Shown piece after piece: positions 26,053 through 32,000 of a stretch of 32,000 nucleotides of DNA. A program made the position numbers and the translations under genes. This DNA comes from Candidatus Omnitrophota bacterium (GTDB lineage: Bacteria > Omnitrophota > Gorgyraeia > Zapsychrales > JANLHA01), in NCBI GenBank assembly GCA_963662715.1, contig OY759724.1:1890001-1922000 (forward strand), read 5' to 3'. The notes beneath the pieces are model-generated. The model had not been told where the DNA came from. It did no database searches and saw only the letters and a list, made by a program, of their open reading frames with translations. Every line of letters starts with the position of its first letter. Position 1 is the first letter of the stretch.

Positions 26053-26128
26053 GTATAATGAAAAAAACACACCAAGGGAAGGGAACGAAATCCCCGCCCT
26101 TAGTCACGACGTAGAATAATTGTTATGT
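26053..26128 (+). repeat. possible degenerate attC (attC0) or attI-like junction ending in the first cassette boundary
   Basis: 76 nt from GTATAAT (one C-to-T change away from GTATAAC, the complement of the GTTATAC at 25956) to GTTATGT (26122-26128). There is an internal imperfect stem CCAAGGGAAGGGA / TCCCCGCCCTTAG. Only the R' end is well supported. Confidence 0.3.
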
Positions 26129-26688
26129 GTAAAATTATGAAAAATAATGGAATAAAAATATTTGGATTAGTTTTGTTGCTTATTGCATGGGGCGCTGATT
26201 ATTTCATACTTTCAAAAGCAAAAGAAAATCTGAAAAAAATTGAATTTGCGGTCGTAAATAGTGGGATCGTTGATAATAGCTCAAAGCTAAATTTTATAAA
26301 ATATATAGAGCAAGAAAGAATTGAACCCAAATTATTGAGTCTTTCATACAGGGATAAACTTGAGGGCATTGCAGCTACAACTCTACTTTTAAAACAATCT
26401 GGAATCAAACCTGACTCGATAGATTCAAACCTCCTTAATGAGATCAACGCATTATTAAGATTTGTTAATACCGCATATGACAATGGCTCTTCTTTGGAGC
26501 CAAAAGACATACAAAGGGATATTCGACATGAGATAGTTGTTCTCGAAAATCGAGTTCATAAATACCTCACTAAATGCCTAAAACAATCGAAGGATAAATA
26601 TAAAATATGGGATATTGTTTTTGTGGCAATGTATAGCATTGGAACAATTTTTTTGATTATCGGAGAAACTAAAGAAAAAAACACATAA
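26125..26688 (+). CDS. cassette 1: hypothetical 2-TM membrane protein
   Basis: 187 aa. N-terminal helix IKIFGLVLLLIAWGADYFIL and C-terminal helix IWDIVFVAMYSIGTIFLIIG flank a helical region of about 130 aa. ATG 26125 lies inside the R' box, and ATG 26137 is an alternative start. The TAA stop lies inside the R'' box CATAAC. Confidence 0.6.
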   Translation: MCKIMKNNGIKIFGLVLLLIAWGADYFILSKAKENLKKIEFAVVNSGIVDNSSKLNFIKYIEQERIEPKLLSLSYRDKLEGIAATTLLLKQSGIKPDSIDSNLLNEINALLRFVNTAYDNGSSLEPKDIQRDIRHEIVVLENRVHKYLTKCLKQSKDKYKIWDIVFVAMYSIGTIFLIIGETKEKNT

Positions 26689-26744
26689 CAAATCGTTCCA
26701 AGCGGAGCCAAAAGAGCGCGCGCTTGAGCTCTGGCGTTATGCAA
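26681..26744 (+). repeat. attC1 recombination site (about 60 nt)
   Basis: R'' is ACACATAAC (26681-26689) and R' is GTTATGCAA (26736-26744). The imperfect internal stem GTTCCAAGCG / CGCTTGAGC has one unpaired base. Confidence 0.7.
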
Positions 26745-26762
26745 GAAATAGAAAGGTAAAGG

Positions 26763-27710
26763 ATGATAGAAAAAGTTGATTTGCTCACAAGAGACAACTT
26801 GACTCGTCATATTAAAAAAAAGATCTCAAATTTATCCGAAATCTCAGACCTTGTTCCTACCAATCAAAATCTACTAATTTTGAAATCATTTTTGCCGCTT
26901 ATTGTAGCCTATTTCGAAGCATCTATAATTGATACTATAAAAGAATATTCATTGGCCAGACCTTATGAAATCGTAACATCAAAGAATGTAAAAGAGATAT
27001 TAAATGATAAGCGTTTCACACAAAATAGGGATAATTTTGAGGAAAAACAATTTGAAGAATACGTCTTAGAAGAATATCTTTCTCAGATCGAAAATCAATG
27101 CCTTAAAGATAAGATTAAGAAGCTTGGTGATTTGTTGCAAATAAAAGTTGACCTTGGTGACGAAAGCTGGGAGCAGATCAAAGAAATAGTCGCAAGAAGG
27201 AATTGTTTGATACACAATGATTTAATTGCAAATGAGGTTTATTTTAAGCAAGCTGGAGCACAAGCGAAAAAGACGTTAAAGATAGACATTCCATATCTTT
27301 TGGCGACTATTCAAATAGTGTCTACCTTTCTTTCGAAAATTCAAAAGAATATAGATGAAAATTATGGTTCAAATTCAGAAGTTGCCGCAATAGAGCGATT
27401 ATGGAATTATTTTTTTGAAGGTCAGTTTAAATTGAAGTTTAATGATTGTTGGCAAGAAGAAAGAGGACACGTTAGCTATAAGGGGCCGCAATTGGAAGGC
27501 TTGAAAGATTGCCATTCGCCGCGGACTATTTTTTTGTGGTCTGCATGGATGTCTTTTTTCAATGGTAGTGATCTAAAGAATTTTTATTCGATATTTTCTC
27601 TTAGCGAAGAAGAAAGGGAAATTTATTTAAATAAATTTATTTTCTTGATGAGATGCTTTGAGAAAATAAGTTTTCAATCTTTTAAGGTTCATATTTATGA
27701 TAAAAAGTAA
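26763..27710 (+). CDS. cassette 2: HEPN-like protein (RiboL-PSP/Abi-type Rx4H motif) with an unknown C-terminal domain
   Basis: 315 aa. EIVARRNCLIHND (R146-x4-H151, nt 27198-27215) lies at the end of an all-helical N-terminal half, as in HEPN nuclease domains. The C-terminal region of about 110 aa (Trp/Phe-rich) is not recognised. Confidence 0.45.
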   Translation: MIEKVDLLTRDNLTRHIKKKISNLSEISDLVPTNQNLLILKSFLPLIVAYFEASIIDTIKEYSLARPYEIVTSKNVKEILNDKRFTQNRDNFEEKQFEEYVLEEYLSQIENQCLKDKIKKLGDLLQIKVDLGDESWEQIKEIVARRNCLIHNDLIANEVYFKQAGAQAKKTLKIDIPYLLATIQIVSTFLSKIQKNIDENYGSNSEVAAIERLWNYFFEGQFKLKFNDCWQEERGHVSYKGPQLEGLKDCHSPRTIFLWSAWMSFFNGSDLKNFYSIFSLSEEEREIYLNKFIFLMRCFEKISFQSFKVHIYDKK

Positions 27711-27736
27711 TTTTGTTAATGATTTTGTTAAATTAA

Positions 27737-27800
27737 TTGCATAACAAACGCGTCCAGCGGACGCCGCTATGCGCCGCCAATGATGTGCAAGCGTTATGCT
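27737..27800 (+). repeat. attC2 recombination site (about 61 nt)
   Basis: R'' is TTGCATAAC (27737-27745) and R' is GTTATGCT (27793-27800). The GC-rich imperfect palindrome includes GCGG(A)CGC / GCGCCGC with a bulged A. Confidence 0.65.
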
Positions 27801-27817
27801 AAAAACTTGGAGAAAAA

Positions 27818-30856: not shown

Positions 30857-30872
30857 CAAACAAATAAAAGCC

Positions 30873-30909
30873 TTGATCTACACATTATAATGTGTTATAT
30901 TTTGTGTAG
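30873..30909 (+). promoter_or_regulatory. vapBC promoter with palindromic operator
   Basis: TTGATC (30873-78), a 17-nt spacer, then TATATT (30896-30901). The spacer is almost entirely a perfect 16-bp palindrome ACACATTATAATGTGT (30880-95). An outer inverted repeat is CTACACA (30878-84) / TGTGTAG (30903-09). Confidence 0.6.
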
Positions 30910-30924
30910 AAGGAGGTGTGAAAA

Positions 30925-31122
30925 ATGGCCACAAATTTAGCTTTAGATGATAAATTGATCGTTCTTGCGCAAAAAATAGGTCACCATAAGACGAAAAGGG
31001 AAGCTGTTACCGCGGCACTGAAAGAATATATTACGCACAAAAAACAGCTTGAAGTTAATAATTTTTTTGGAACGATTGATTTTGATAAGAACTACGATTA
31101 CAAAAAAGCAAGGAAGAGATGA
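30925..31122 (+). CDS. vapB: cassette 6: type II antitoxin VapB (RHH/DUF2191-like)
   Basis: 65 aa. MATNLALDDKLIVLAQKIGHHKTKREAVTAALKEYI matches the VapB ribbon-helix-helix pattern. RBS AGGAGG at 30911-16. There is a 4-nt ATGA overlap with the downstream PIN gene. Confidence 0.8.
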   Translation: MATNLALDDKLIVLAQKIGHHKTKREAVTAALKEYITHKKQLEVNNFFGTIDFDKNYDYKKARKR

Positions 31123-31514
31123 AAATTCTTGTGGATACATGTATTTGGTCAGAAGTTTTACGACATAAGAAGCCAAATGCAGACCTGATATCAAAATTTA
31201 GAGATTTGATTGAAGATGGAAGAGTAACAATAATTGGTCCAATAAGGCAAGAATTGCTCTCCGGAATCCCCAATCCTGAACAATTTAAAAAACTAAGAAA
31301 AGTTTTATCTGCTTTCCCCGATATCCCCCTTAATACAGAGCATTTTGAGAAAGCTGCAGAATTTTGTAATATTTGTAGACAAAAAGGAGTACAAGGTTCG
31401 ACTATAGATTTCTTAATTTGCGCGGTTGCTTCGACAGAAAAAATTTTTATTTATACAATAGATAAAGATTTTGAAAATTATATAAAATATTTACCTATAA
31501 AATTGTTTAAATAA
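31119..31514 (+). CDS. vapC: cassette 6: type II toxin VapC (PIN-domain RNase)
   Basis: 131 aa. MKILVDTCIW carries the first PIN Asp, followed by IRQELLSG and the C-terminal TIDKDF acidic residues. Translationally coupled to vapB. Confidence 0.85.
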   Translation: MKILVDTCIWSEVLRHKKPNADLISKFRDLIEDGRVTIIGPIRQELLSGIPNPEQFKKLRKVLSAFPDIPLNTEHFEKAAEFCNICRQKGVQGSTIDFLICAVASTEKIFIYTIDKDFENYIKYLPIKLFK

Positions 31515-31515
31515 A

Positions 31516-31529
31516 GCTCTAACAAGTCA
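31516..31529 (+). repeat. attC6, left part (interrupted by IS copy 2)
   Basis: R'' is GCTCTAAC (31516-23), the exact complement of GTTAGAGC at 30849, followed by AAGTCA directly abutting the IS end. Confidence 0.75.
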
Positions 31530-32000
31530 TCCATGAAAACAGTCATCTGGTCAAGCATAAAATAGAAAGGCCAAATCATCCATTCGCGCTATATTCCCCA
31601 AAAGGACTTATGCGCACAATAGCGTATTATGACAGGGCGTGCCAATCACTACAACGGCCTTAAATATGCCAGAGTTGTTAACAGCATCACCCATTTATAC
31701 TGACCGATATTTATACTCACAGTTGTTTTTCAAAACAGCAAAAACAGATTTTAACAGCTTATGAGCAACAGCAACTATAGCGACACCGTAACCTTTTTTA
31801 GTTCGAATCTTCTGAAAATGAGTTTGTAAATATATATCACGGCGCACAGCGGTTTGAGCCGCTTCGACAAAAGCAGTGCGTAAGTATTTATTGCCATCTT
31901 TAGTAATAGGGCCTGAATAATAGCTTTGACCTGATTGATGGACACGAGGAACAATGCCGGCGTAACGGGCAAGTTTATGCGCATTCTTAAAGCGGGAGAT
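31530..32000 (-). mobile_element. IS110/IS1111-attC-like element, copy 2 (truncated by the window end)
   Basis: The 471 nt are collinear with 29220-29690 (offset 2310), with a single difference (29482 T vs 31792 C). Same orientation and same insertion position within its attC. Confidence 0.9.
31695..32000 (-). CDS. IS110/IS1111-family transposase, C-terminal part (partial at the window edge)
   Basis: Identical to the 3' portion of 29385-30392 except for one codon change (Asp to Gly: KKDYG vs KKGYG). Confidence 0.85.
   Translation of the reverse strand: MSRFKNAHKLARYAGIVPRVHQSGQSYYSGPITKDGNKYLRTAFVEAAQTAVRRDIYLQTHFQKIRTKKGYGVAIVAVAHKLLKSVFAVLKNNCEYKYRSV

Follow-up and report, generated by a model that had tools for sequence, protein, structure and literature searches.

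Gene cassettes enter and leave an integron as circles. Both steps are catalysed by the integron integrase IntI, a tyrosine recombinase that acts on the folded attC bottom strand and recombines it at G|TT, the partner being attI or a second attC. The intI gene normally sits on the attI side of the array, and IntegronFinder calls a complete integron where intI lies within about 4 kb of an attC cluster. By CALIN, Cury et al., in the 2016 work on IntegronFinder, reportedly mean clusters of attC sites without an integron integrase. The IS1111-attC group of insertion sequences (ISPa21, ISKpn4, ISPst6) is said to go back to Tetu and Holmes in 2008 and Post and Hall in 2009. To our knowledge, the Omnitrophota are a phylum known from metagenomes only. 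Integrase-less attC clusters, some of them at conserved loci, have already been described (PMC12444791; bioRxiv 10.1101/2022.09.11.507474), including CALINs at conserved loci in Xanthomonas (PMC12444791).

Here we analysed a window of 32,000 nucleotides from a Candidatus Omnitrophota chromosome; the 3' end of the window is an integron cassette array of six cassettes with an attC at the end of each (Table 1). We are highly confident that the window holds the proximal part of a chromosomal integron cassette array, with an attI-type insertion site and its upstream region followed by the six cassettes, and the locus adds an example to an already known kind of element. About 6 kb of the array is in view at the window end, the right half of attC6 lying outside. 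The attC array had been recognised in a first-pass annotation made from the sequence alone; this reading stood, and it had to be extended by an attC-targeting IS1111-type element, an attI-type start and an apparent integrase elsewhere on the contig.

Table 1. Features of the cassette array, in window positions.
Feature	Position	Strand	Content
Partial copy of attI motif	25625..25650	+	CTAATGTTATACGTCGTTCC...; 20-nt direct repeat of 25951-25970, 90% identical
attI-type region	25837..26121	+	TTGACA-containing conserved block; ~45-nt motif 25951-25996; conserved TATAAT 26053-26058
Crossover box (attI x attC junction)	26122..26128	+	GTTATGT; 9-nt perfect complement of cassette 1 R''
Cassette 1	26123..26736	+	ORF 26125-26688, 187 aa; attC1 26683-26742
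Cassette 2	26737..27793	+	ORF 26763-27710, HEPN RiboL-PSP (PF18735, E 1.7e-7); attC2 27739-27799
Cassette 3	27794..28594	+	ORF 27818-28519; attC3 28521-28600
Cassette 4	28595..30530	+	ORF 28613-29203; attC4 split by IS into 29207-29219 and 30473-30536
IS1111-type IS copy 1	29220..30472	-	1253 bp; DEDD transposase 29385-30392
Cassette 5	30531..30849	+	319 bp, no ORF; attC5 30780-30855
Cassette 6	30850..31529	+	cut off by window end; left part of attC6 31517-31529
IS1111-type IS copy 2	31530..32000	-	same position of attC6; continues past window end

Cassettes and their cargo

The ORF of cassette 1 has no match in Pfam, NCBIfam or PADLOC, and the 196-aa ORF of cassette 4 likewise matches no family. 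Cassette 3 encodes a candidate defence protein (Abi_alpha, PF14337, E 1.3e-21; PADLOC PDC-S47, E 6.6e-13). In cassette 6, a VapB antitoxin gene (30925-31122; PF09957, E 2e-16) is followed by a gene for a PIN-domain VapC toxin (31119-31514; PF01850, E 3.8e-11). A conserved hairpin, AAAATTGGGG...CCCCAATTTT, is located in cassette 5 at about 30698-30752; homologous cassettes of about 320 bp occur four times each in the related loci L108 and L105, with no conserved ORF among them.

Unit 5 has no convincing ORF. Nor does a palindrome follow each ORF within 0-30 nt as had been proposed, since the distances from stop codon to AAC are 1, 35, 8, 10, 90 and 9 nt and units 2 and 5 fall outside this range. 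An imperfect palindrome does close the units, except after units 4 and 6, where it is split 6 nt past the AAC by a 1253-bp insertion sequence (IS).

Box complementarity follows the cassettes

All 12 box strings of the first-pass annotation were exact at the coordinates given, and each of the six pairs proved to be a perfect reverse complement. The sites are 60-80 nt long, with an R'' box (RYYYAAC) at the 5' end and an R' core (GTTRRRY) at the 3' end, found for 6/6 R'' and 6/6 GTT boxes. Each R'' is complementary to the bases that open its own cassette and not to the adjacent R', because cassettes move as circles recombined at G|TT; for example, the R'' box GCTCTAAC of cassette 6 is complementary to GTTAGAGC at 30849. 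The cassette-wise runs measure 9, 9, 8, 7, 8 and 8 nt, and pairing inside single sites is weaker (6, 7, 5, 3 and 3 nt). We infer that the recombination point within the GTTATGT box is likewise G|TT.

Shuffled controls gave a divided answer on this complementarity. An unanchored test, which counted any GTT...AAC 7-mer pair 150-2600 nt apart, did not discriminate: 18 such pairs were present in the 6-kb region, 2000 Markov simulations averaged 15.6, and the simulated chains of pairs were about as long as the observed ones. Since unanchored pairs are this common by chance, box complementarity without positional anchoring is not evidence. When the six starts and six ends were fixed, the cassette-wise pairing totalled 49 nt and was the unique maximum of 720 permutations (mean 29.8).

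attC identity of the sites

As a surrogate for the IntegronFinder attC model, we used a covariance model built solely from 13 class 1 integron attCs of clinical plasmids. This model recovered the four intact sites on the + strand, at full length and exactly at the predicted coordinates. Scores were highest for attC1 (48.3 bits, E 1.2e-10), followed by attC2 (29.1 bits, E 1.7e-5), attC5 (25.1 bits, E 2e-4) and attC3 with only 16.7 bits (E 0.034); the next-best match reached 12.4 bits (E 0.49). The right half of attC4, which is 91% identical to attC5, gave a partial match of 9.2 bits. Over 1.1 Mb of control loci the surrogate model returned nothing at E<=1, and on both strands of window positions 1-26000 it found no match below E 0.49, so that a REP-like scatter of the repeats outside ORF-repeat-ORF contexts was not seen there.

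Folding of the bottom strands was clear for three sites. The fold that had been described for attC3 was reproduced: its 4-nt spacers remain unpaired and one arm carries three single-base bulges (z = -2.7). A hairpin is also clear for attC5. Reconstituted attC4 is a canonical hairpin of -17.3 kcal/mol; restoring the cassette's own R' closes the R stem and brings the value to -18.6. The attC1 fold has R and L stems (z = 0.0) and the minimum-energy fold of attC2 is non-canonical (z = -0.95), neither being better than shuffled sequence. We compared 27 distinct attCs, drawn from the window and from its relatives. Their L''/L' helix is paired at 97% of positions with compensatory changes in 6/9 pairs, and its covariation score is 0.33 versus 0.12 in shuffles (0/500 shuffles reach 0.33), in an alignment that was fitted to the covariance model; pairing in slid-control alignments was <=48%. 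Outer R-box positions pair about half the time, as expected because the R' boxes inside an array are hybrid.

These data bear on whether the elements could be REP-like or terminator-like palindromes that merely trail ORFs, with no integron involved. Such a reading could draw on the chance complementarity of unanchored 7-mers and on attC1 and attC2 being no more stable than shuffles, but the complementarity is cassette-wise rather than site-wise, and a plasmid-trained attC model matches the array alone. It is equally at odds with an attI homologous to integrase-linked sites and with an attC-specific IS at a fixed attC position (see below), and we assign it a negligible probability. The anchored pairing test and the attC model with its 1.1 Mb of controls led us to reject repeats of this type.

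An attI-type region upstream of cassette 1

Upstream of cassette 1 lies an attI-type region of about 290 nt, which had been overlooked. Its core, CGTAGAATAATT, ends at the crossover, and the core form ..CGTAGAATAAwT|GTTA is common to the window and the related loci L108, L103 and L105, with divergence immediately past GTT; the crossover at 26122 is thus the position where the related loci diverge. About 225 nt upstream of the core are homologous to the integrase-linked attI regions of L103 and L105. Specifically, window positions 25837-26062 align to the intI-proximal spacer of a complete integron in L103 (blastn E 2e-7), and the attI-region motif forms four repeats in the L103 intI-attI spacer. 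The start of the array is a bona fide attI-type region and not a random breakpoint, and it lies at what in integrons is the integrase-proximal end. The reported lack of an ORF of >=60 aa in the 700 nt upstream was confirmed over 25422-26121. The region may contain a promoter; a consensus promoter scan of it returned promoter-like sites no more often than chance.

An IS1111-type element inside attC4 and attC6

The two IS copies that split attC4 and attC6 had also escaped notice. Members of the IS1111 family were recognised by a DEDD transposase, subterminal repeats with 7- and 3-nt extensions and a longer non-coding region downstream of tnp (PMC11187229), and the element in the window has all of these. 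Its transposase matches PF01548, PF02371 and NF033542 ("IS110 family RNA-guided transposase", 229 bits). The subterminal inverted repeats ATGAAAAC/GTTTTCAT are 8 nt long, shorter than the usual 11-13, with terminal extensions TGATAGT (7-nt) and GGA (3-nt), and the non-coding regions measure 165 nt at the 3' end versus 80 nt at the 5' end. Copy 2, flanked by AAC AAGTCA|TCCATGAAAAC, differs from copy 1 by one mismatch in 471 nt.

At least 7 different attC contexts harbour the IS or one of its relatives, which are annotated as Omnitrophota. In each, the insertion point lies 6 nt 3' of the R'' AAC and tnp runs against the direction of the cassettes, so that insertion is attC-specific and fixed in both position and orientation. 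The 3' non-coding region of copy 1 (29220-29384) contains putative seekRNA guide segments: two guide-like segments match both target strands and overlap at the insertion point, and they may act as a guide RNA for the attC target. This element, which targets a fixed attC position and is putatively RNA-guided, has disabled attC4 and attC6. With the IS inside these two sites, cassettes 4 to 6 should be frozen in place, and with two of six attCs disrupted, the array may be partly inert. The directly repeated copies would offer a substrate for deletion.

The integrase and the related loci

A tyrosine recombinase, already noted as missing from the region upstream of the array, is encoded by none of the window's ORFs of >=100 aa, and tblastn with IntI1 against the window returned nothing below E 2. 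Neither the upstream 26 kb nor the 6 kb of array in view contains intI, and the locus, with no such gene beside attI, is not a complete integron. Formally it is a CALIN because the intI gene is absent beside attI, and with four intact and two IS-split attCs it exceeds the two sites by which such clusters are defined. The earlier designation as a CALIN-type cluster within this window therefore stands, its attCs now confirmed and the integrase absent from the window.

The first-pass annotation had proposed looking for an IntI-type recombinase with the integron-specific insertion. P0138 is an IntI homologue of 433 aa (TIGR02249, 396 bits) in which the catalytic residues and the IntI-specific insertion align. 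This full-length integron integrase appears to lie on the window's own 3.36-Mb contig, a placement resting on a matching record size of 3,360,633 bp rather than on sequence comparison; the window's 100%-identical transposase P0001 and NUDIX-like P0256 are recorded on a contig of the same size. The array is a chromosomal cassette array of CALIN type that has an attI of its own and is probably served in trans, by an integrase that would act from another locus of the same chromosome, and it may be active at present.

Among syntenic genomes, a Candidatus Omnitrophota MAG is the closest, in agreement with the uncultivated lineage suspected at first. Comparison with related genomes, also proposed earlier, revealed syntenic arrays with different cassettes: integrase-less arrays are present at the NUDIX-flanked locus in L001/L106 and L108 as well. 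The closely related L001 and L106 share 92% identity over 329 nt, as far as GAATT|GTT, past which their sequences are unrelated. This split exactly at GAATT|GTT indicates cassette turnover at the junction, observed here in relatives and not in the window's genome. In L103 and L105, intI adjoins an RND efflux operon at a locus separate from the NUDIX site, and the L103 integrase scores 408 bits with TIGR02249 (cutoff 265). L108 and L103 belong to one assembly record, and over 926 nt their attI regions share 98.6% identity.

An array that lost its integrase, ceased to exchange cassettes and is now inherited while slowly decaying would also lack intI in the window, and two IS-split attCs among six, the poor fold of attC2 and the low score of attC3 would suit such decay. 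Integrase loss or rearrangement has indeed been described as the origin of CALINs (bioRxiv 10.1101/2022.09.11.507474). Against a fossil array speak the unrelated first cassettes of L001 and L106 behind a 92% identical stretch up to the crossover, the conservation of the attI core with integrase-linked sites, the full-length IntI seemingly on the same contig and the near identity of the L108 and L103 attI regions. We therefore regard it as unlikely.

A displaced part of one complete integron, separated from intI by IS-mediated inversion or translocation or cut off from an intI just past the window 3' end, would require no second platform. Two directly repeated IS copies in the array, of a kind that favours rearrangement, and the restriction of the window to the first 6 kb of the array leave some room for this. 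But attI lies beside NUDIX in at least 3 other genomes (L001/L106, L108), L103 and L105 keep intI at the other locus beside the RND efflux operon, the downstream 10 kb of the L106 array yielded no integrase call, and the attI side, the usual home of intI, is fully inside the window. This makes displacement quite improbable.

Our own, tentative proposal is a two-platform integron in this clade, to which we give slightly less than an even chance. One RND-side integrase may serve both its own array and the integrase-less NUDIX-flanked array, alongside a lineage of seekRNA-guided IS1111 elements particular to the clade, whose guide segments co-vary with the attCs into which they insert. The NUDIX-flanked array would start at a duplicate of the attI region, and the window would represent the second platform.

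Comparison with known systems

What looks like a working integron system is documented here for Omnitrophota, with cargo of defence and toxin-antitoxin type. The locus provides a concrete case in which a syntenic integrase-less attC cluster retains a recognisable attI across species while the integrase is located elsewhere, and so bears on the origin of CALINs and on whether they stay active. If the two-platform proposal is true, some CALINs are maintained, trans-served attI platforms, neither relics nor off-target insertions. The attC-targeting IS1111-type element offers a natural guide-target covariation that supports RNA-guided target choice outside Proteobacteria, and illustrates the freezing of integron arrays by attC-targeting elements.

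By description, this element resembles the IS1111-attC group (ISPa21, ISKpn4, ISPst6) in its DEDD transposase, subterminal repeats, long region downstream of tnp and fixed attC insertion. It is like seekRNA-guided IS1111 elements in having two guide-like segments that match the target strands (PMC11187229). Among 72,556 plasmid records, the best match to its transposase is 38.6% identical.

Class 1 integron attCs (aadA1, cmlA1, psp/HAD and others) have the same architecture as the window sites, including an additional base in the canonical place on the L'' arm, and attC1 shares an AAC-AAATCG...GAGCTC-nGGC-GTTA block with cmlA1. The array differs from class 1 integrons in its host phylum and in that attC4, attC5 and attC6 are of a lineage-specific type of about 77 nt (CAGCGGAG...CCGCTGAG), as in chromosomal integrons. 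Like CALINs and sedentary chromosomal arrays, it is a chromosomal set of co-oriented, promoterless-looking cassettes, each with an attC, beside core genes and with no nearby intI, and its cargo of proteins of unknown function, a toxin-antitoxin pair and defence-like genes is similar. Whereas CALINs are usually described without an identified attI, the array in the window starts at a recognisable attI-type region.

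attC Sites Matched by a Surrogate Covariance Model

The region that follows the NUDIX-like gene is very probably an integron cassette array that is integrase-less at this locus. Searching the window with Rfam returned no family at gathering scores and no attC-type family match, and in 25400-32000 gave just two sub-threshold chance matches. With the IntI1 protein as query, we found class 1 integrons among the plasmids and built a surrogate model from 14 annotated arrays with 13 distinct attCs (aadA1, aadA2, aadA5, aadB, psp/HAD, qacL, cmlA1, estX, blaVIM-2, aac(6')-Ib, dfrA12, aac(6')-29a, and arr-3). 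The attCs were aligned, the textbook R''/R' and L''/L' pairs were imposed together with one extrahelical column, and the resulting covariance model, which is free of any window sequence, was searched with filters off against both strands of all 32 kb. It gave four matches, all on the plus strand and each covering model positions 1-60, at exactly the coordinates derived from the boxes for the four intact sites. The next-best match in the window reached 12.4 bits (E 0.49); a partial match fell on the split attC4, in its right half, and 1.1 Mb of unrelated MAG loci yielded nothing at E<=1. At one plasmid locus (L090, NZ_CP038280.1, 3525-5647), a class 1 integron array contains a group II intron reverse transcriptase past a yjjG-like cassette gene and before the 3' part of an aadA-type attC. 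This is consistent with the known group IIC-attC introns, and the intron-bearing site was excluded from the model.

The bottom strand of attC3 folds as proposed earlier, with 4-nt spacers and three bulges on one arm (z = -2.7), and the attC5 fold agrees with an attC structure (z = -2.2); the folds of attC1 and attC2 were uninformative. Being split by insertion sequences, attC4 and attC6 are unable to fold any longer. Reconstituted attC4 folds like attC5, and the R stem closes once the R' belonging to each cassette is put back. An alignment of 27 distinct attCs, taken from the window and related loci, shows 97% pairing in the L helix with 6 of 9 pairs changed on both sides, a covariation to be read with the caveat that this alignment was fitted to the attC model. 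In the same set, the four outer R-box pairs form in only about half of the cases, as hybrid R' boxes within an array would lead one to expect.

Box Complementarity and Cassette Contents

All 12 boxes of the first-pass annotation are present at their coordinates, and the two members of every pair are perfect reverse complements of each other along 7-9 nt. Whether shuffled controls reproduce this complementarity depends on anchoring. Counting GTT-started 7-mers with a complement ending in AAC 150-2600 nt away, we found 18 pairs in the 6-kb region versus a mean of 15.6 in first-order Markov simulations, with chains comparable in length. Complementarity of the boxes without positional anchoring is no evidence, and because this test was non-discriminating, an anchored permutation test was used in its place, which the pattern withstood. 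With the six starts (G of GTT) and the six ends (C of AAC) held fixed, cassette-wise pairing gives 49 complementary bases, the unique maximum of 720 permutations (mean 29.8); site-wise pairing, of an end with the R' box of its own site, stays below this at 6, 7, 5, 3, and 3 nt. The cassette-wise, not the site-wise, pattern is the prediction of G/TT recombination of separately circularisable units, and a simple palindromic repeat would not give it.

The distances from stop codon to AAC measure 1, 35, 8, 10, 90, and 9 nt in units 1-6, correcting the 0-30 nt given before; a further correction is that unit 5 has no credible ORF. Homologues of this cassette of about 320 bp occur four times each in L108, a related NUDIX-linked locus (12275-13561), and in L105, a related complete integron (2764-6142). 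The family shares conserved blocks and an invariant 10-bp hairpin, AAAATTGGGG...CCCCAATTTT, and has no conserved ORF and no Rfam match. Cassette 5 may specify a non-coding RNA or serve a regulatory role.

Features of the array, its attI region, and counterparts at related loci
Feature	Position	Strand	Description
NUDIX-like gene	24927-25421		adjoins attI region
~45-nt motif, window	25625-25650, 25951-25996
~45-nt motif, L001	13716-13760
~45-nt motif, L099	2330-2370
Segment aligning to L103 spacer	25837-26062		E 2e-7
Pre-crossover core, window			NUDIX-linked; GACGTAGAATAATT, then GTTA
Pre-crossover core, L108			NUDIX-linked; GCCGTAGAATAAAT, then GTTA
Pre-crossover core, L103 and L105			integrase-linked; GCCGTAGAATAAAT, then GTTA
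Cassette 1			187-aa protein, no family match
attC1	26683-26742	+	attC model 48.3 bits, E 1.2e-10
Cassette 2			HEPN RiboL-PSP protein
attC2	27739-27799	+	attC model 29.1 bits, E 1.7e-5
Cassette 3			Abi_alpha / PDC-S47 candidate defence protein
attC3	28521-28600	+	attC model 16.7 bits, E 0.034
Cassette 4			196-aa protein, no family match
IS1111-type IS, copy 1	29220-30472	-	1253 bp; splits attC4 between AACAACTCA and CTACAGCGG
Transposase ORF	29385-30392	-	DEDD transposase
Cassette 5	30531-30849		319 bp, ORF-less
attC5	30780-30855	+	attC model 25.1 bits, E 2e-4
Cassette 6			VapBC pair
IS1111-type IS, copy 2	31530-32000	-	runs off window; matching position of attC6; one mismatch in 471 nt

Insertion Sequences Within attC4 and attC6

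The elements after units 4 and 6, which had been reported as imperfect palindromes, are interrupted by two copies of an insertion sequence missed in the first pass. Its ORF encodes a DEDD transposase (PF01548 and PF02371; NF033542 'IS110 family RNA-guided transposase'). The element has subterminal inverted repeats ATGAAAAC/GTTTTCAT, with extensions of 7 nt at the transposase-proximal end and 3 nt at the other, and its non-coding region is longer downstream of tnp (165 versus 80 nt). Such repeat, extension, and non-coding features mark the IS1111 family versus IS110 (Siddiquee et al., PMC11187229).

Among 72,556 plasmid records, no protein was more than 38-39% identical to the transposase, and a scan of the genome contig collection gave no relatives. 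The closest relatives in a large protein collection are 62-68% identical and come from Candidatus Omnitrophota wherever a source is named. Elements of this kind are present in the window (two copies) and at the related loci L097-L105 and L108. Those in L097-L104 all lie 6 nt after the AAC of an attC R'' box, their tnp reading in the direction opposite to the cassettes, and the relatives' insertions span at least seven different attC contexts. The insertions are independent biological evidence for the attC identity of the sites.

Two segments in the 3' non-coding region of the element are conserved, and their variable bases change with the target. The first reads GUUAACAA, then CU, AG, GU, or AG, then C in the window, L099, L103, and L104 elements, respectively, and at least one target site of these elements reads AACAA, then CT, AG, GT, or AG, then CA. 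The second, UG-UAG-UGA or UG-GAU-UGA, corresponds to the reverse complement of CTAC or ATCC on the opposite side of the insertion point. In ISKpn4 and ISPst6, which target attCs, the seekRNA arrangement consists of two guides, one for each strand of the target, that overlap where the element inserts; the putative guide segments of the window element appear to be arranged alike. The minimum-energy fold of this region is no more stable than shuffles, so the seekRNA reading draws on guide-target matches, not on structure.

The attI Region Upstream of Cassette 1

Relatives of the insertion sequence led to the complete integrons L099, L103, and L105. The L099 integrase (412 bits on TIGR02249) is divergent from the first cassette, whose attC holds an insertion sequence. 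In L103 and L105, a 433-aa integrase (408 and 410 bits, respectively) lies next to an RND efflux operon, and the arrays contain several attC matches and copies of the element. Homology of the region upstream of cassette 1 became clear only through the integrase-linked L103 and L099. Directly compared with L001, the syntenic locus of the nearest genome, this region gave an uninformative global MAFFT alignment and a Smith-Waterman score not above shuffles.

The upstream region of the window aligns to the integrase-proximal spacer of L103, and immediately before the crossover the integrase-linked and NUDIX-linked loci have near-identical bases; the bases past GTT are unlike in each of L103, L105, L108, and the window. 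Judged from sequence, the attI homology and the shared core show that the window array begins at a genuine attI region, present here as a copy, its start being neither an arbitrary breakpoint nor a degraded attC. L108 and L103 lie on contig_29 and contig_14, respectively, of one assembly record, ERZ21869516, and the region after the NUDIX-like gene of L108 (10405-11329) matches the intI-attI spacer of L103 with 98.6% identity over 926 nt. Should both contigs belong to one genome, this near-identity would point to two platforms linked by a recent event, either duplication or gene conversion. The NUDIX-like gene in L108 was called at just 95 aa and may be truncated.

A motif of about 45 nt, CTAATGwTATACGrCGTCCC...ATTAAGGGGCAAA, is present in two copies in the window and in four copies between intI and cassette 1 in L103. 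It is partly palindromic around TATACG/CGTATA (the same 5' part...GATATTAAGGGGCAAAgG) and may be a protein-binding site. The motif recurs in attI regions at both integrase-linked and integrase-less loci of this integron family. TATAAT is conserved about 65-75 nt before the crossover; a sigma-70 promoter scan of the attI region found no enrichment, and as a promoter this sequence is only a lead.

Synteny and Cassette Turnover

Upstream of the array lie co-oriented core genes (uvrB, groEL, guaB, guaA, dnaE, hisS, aspS, phoH, ybeY, recO, a 2-hydroxyacid dehydrogenase gene, yceI, and the NUDIX-like gene). The NUDIX-like protein has no Pfam match at E<=0.01, and its family matches are all weak (NudE model, E 8e-5). 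GC skew is positive in all 1-kb bins of the window, and every core gene is on the plus strand. This is probably the leading strand, in which case the attC bottom strands would lie on the leading-strand template, the orientation reported for the Vibrio chromosomal integron.

Among species representatives, the genome closest to the window is the Candidatus Omnitrophota MAG of L001. The two are syntenic over the stretch that runs from phoH as far as the NUDIX-like gene, with protein identities of 55-90%. Past this gene, L001 has a spacer of about 320 nt, a different ORF, an attC (22.6 bits), and the contig end. L106, from a strain near-identical to that of L001 and on a longer contig, continues for 10 kb with genes that share one orientation and for the most part have no Pfam match; no integrase was called there, and two attC matches lie within the first 2 kb. 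A metagenome scan with the NUDIX-like protein alignment added no more than a second record of L001 and a single short contig. In the comparison of related genomes for cassette turnover, proposed in the first pass, L001 and L106 show 92% identity over the 329 nt that lead to ...AAAGAATT and the following GTT and have nothing in common past it, which means that this junction carries different cassettes in two close relatives.

The array could instead be a fossil, as the two insertions and the weak attC2 might suggest, and these do argue that part of the window array is frozen. We consider a fossil unlikely. The array keeps its position in at least three species, its attI is conserved, and cassettes turn over between close strains, all of which argues for a platform that is active now or was so recently.

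An Integrase Homologue Outside the Window

As stated before, no tyrosine recombinase is encoded in the window, and no IntI1-like remnant was found in the 700-nt upstream region; together with the model-matched attC sites, this agrees with the earlier classification as a CALIN-type cluster. The proposed search for IntI, negative in the window, did find a homologue outside it. The window transposase and NUDIX-like protein are identical (100% each) to the database proteins P0001 and P0256 on one contig of 3,360,633 bp. Using the L103 integrase as query, we detected P0138, a protein of 433 aa and 69% identity that is likewise recorded, from the same sources, on a 3,360,633-bp contig. The contig that carries the window thus appears to encode an integron integrase at another place. 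P0138 scores 396 bits on TIGR02249 (cutoff 265) and, aligned with IntI1, retains both the catalytic residues and the insertion typical of IntI proteins. The integrases of this clade (P0138, P0136, P0137, and that of L099 at 2401-3774) range from about 430 to 457 aa and, compared with IntI1, are extended by some 100 aa at the N terminus, and their best 120 database relatives are all similar in size, at about 430 aa or more. The NCBI label 'integron integrase' is already attached to an Omnitrophota MAG protein (P0203).

Comparison With Known Systems

The region is a CALIN-type cassette array possessing its own attI. By the standard and simplest mechanism, folded attC bottom strands would undergo IntI-catalysed recombination at G/TT, either with attI or among themselves, and IntI would be supplied in trans from the P0138 locus. 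That one integrase serves both its own array and a second, integrase-less, NUDIX-flanked array is a reading we hold tentatively, at a little short of even probability.

In a non-exhaustive literature search, we found no description of an attI that has been kept, or duplicated, at a syntenic locus lacking an integrase, nor of an Omnitrophota lineage of attC-targeting insertion sequences with guide-target covariation. CALINs are defined and common, and their debated origin is put down to integrase loss, rearrangement, or attG-site insertion (bioRxiv 10.1101/2022.09.11.507474); in Xanthomonas, CALINs at conserved loci have already been described (PMC12444791). Likewise, attC-targeting IS1111 elements and their seekRNAs are already known (PMC11187229). 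Since CALINs, such elements, and Omnitrophota integron integrases are all known, the array described here adds another member to a known kind.
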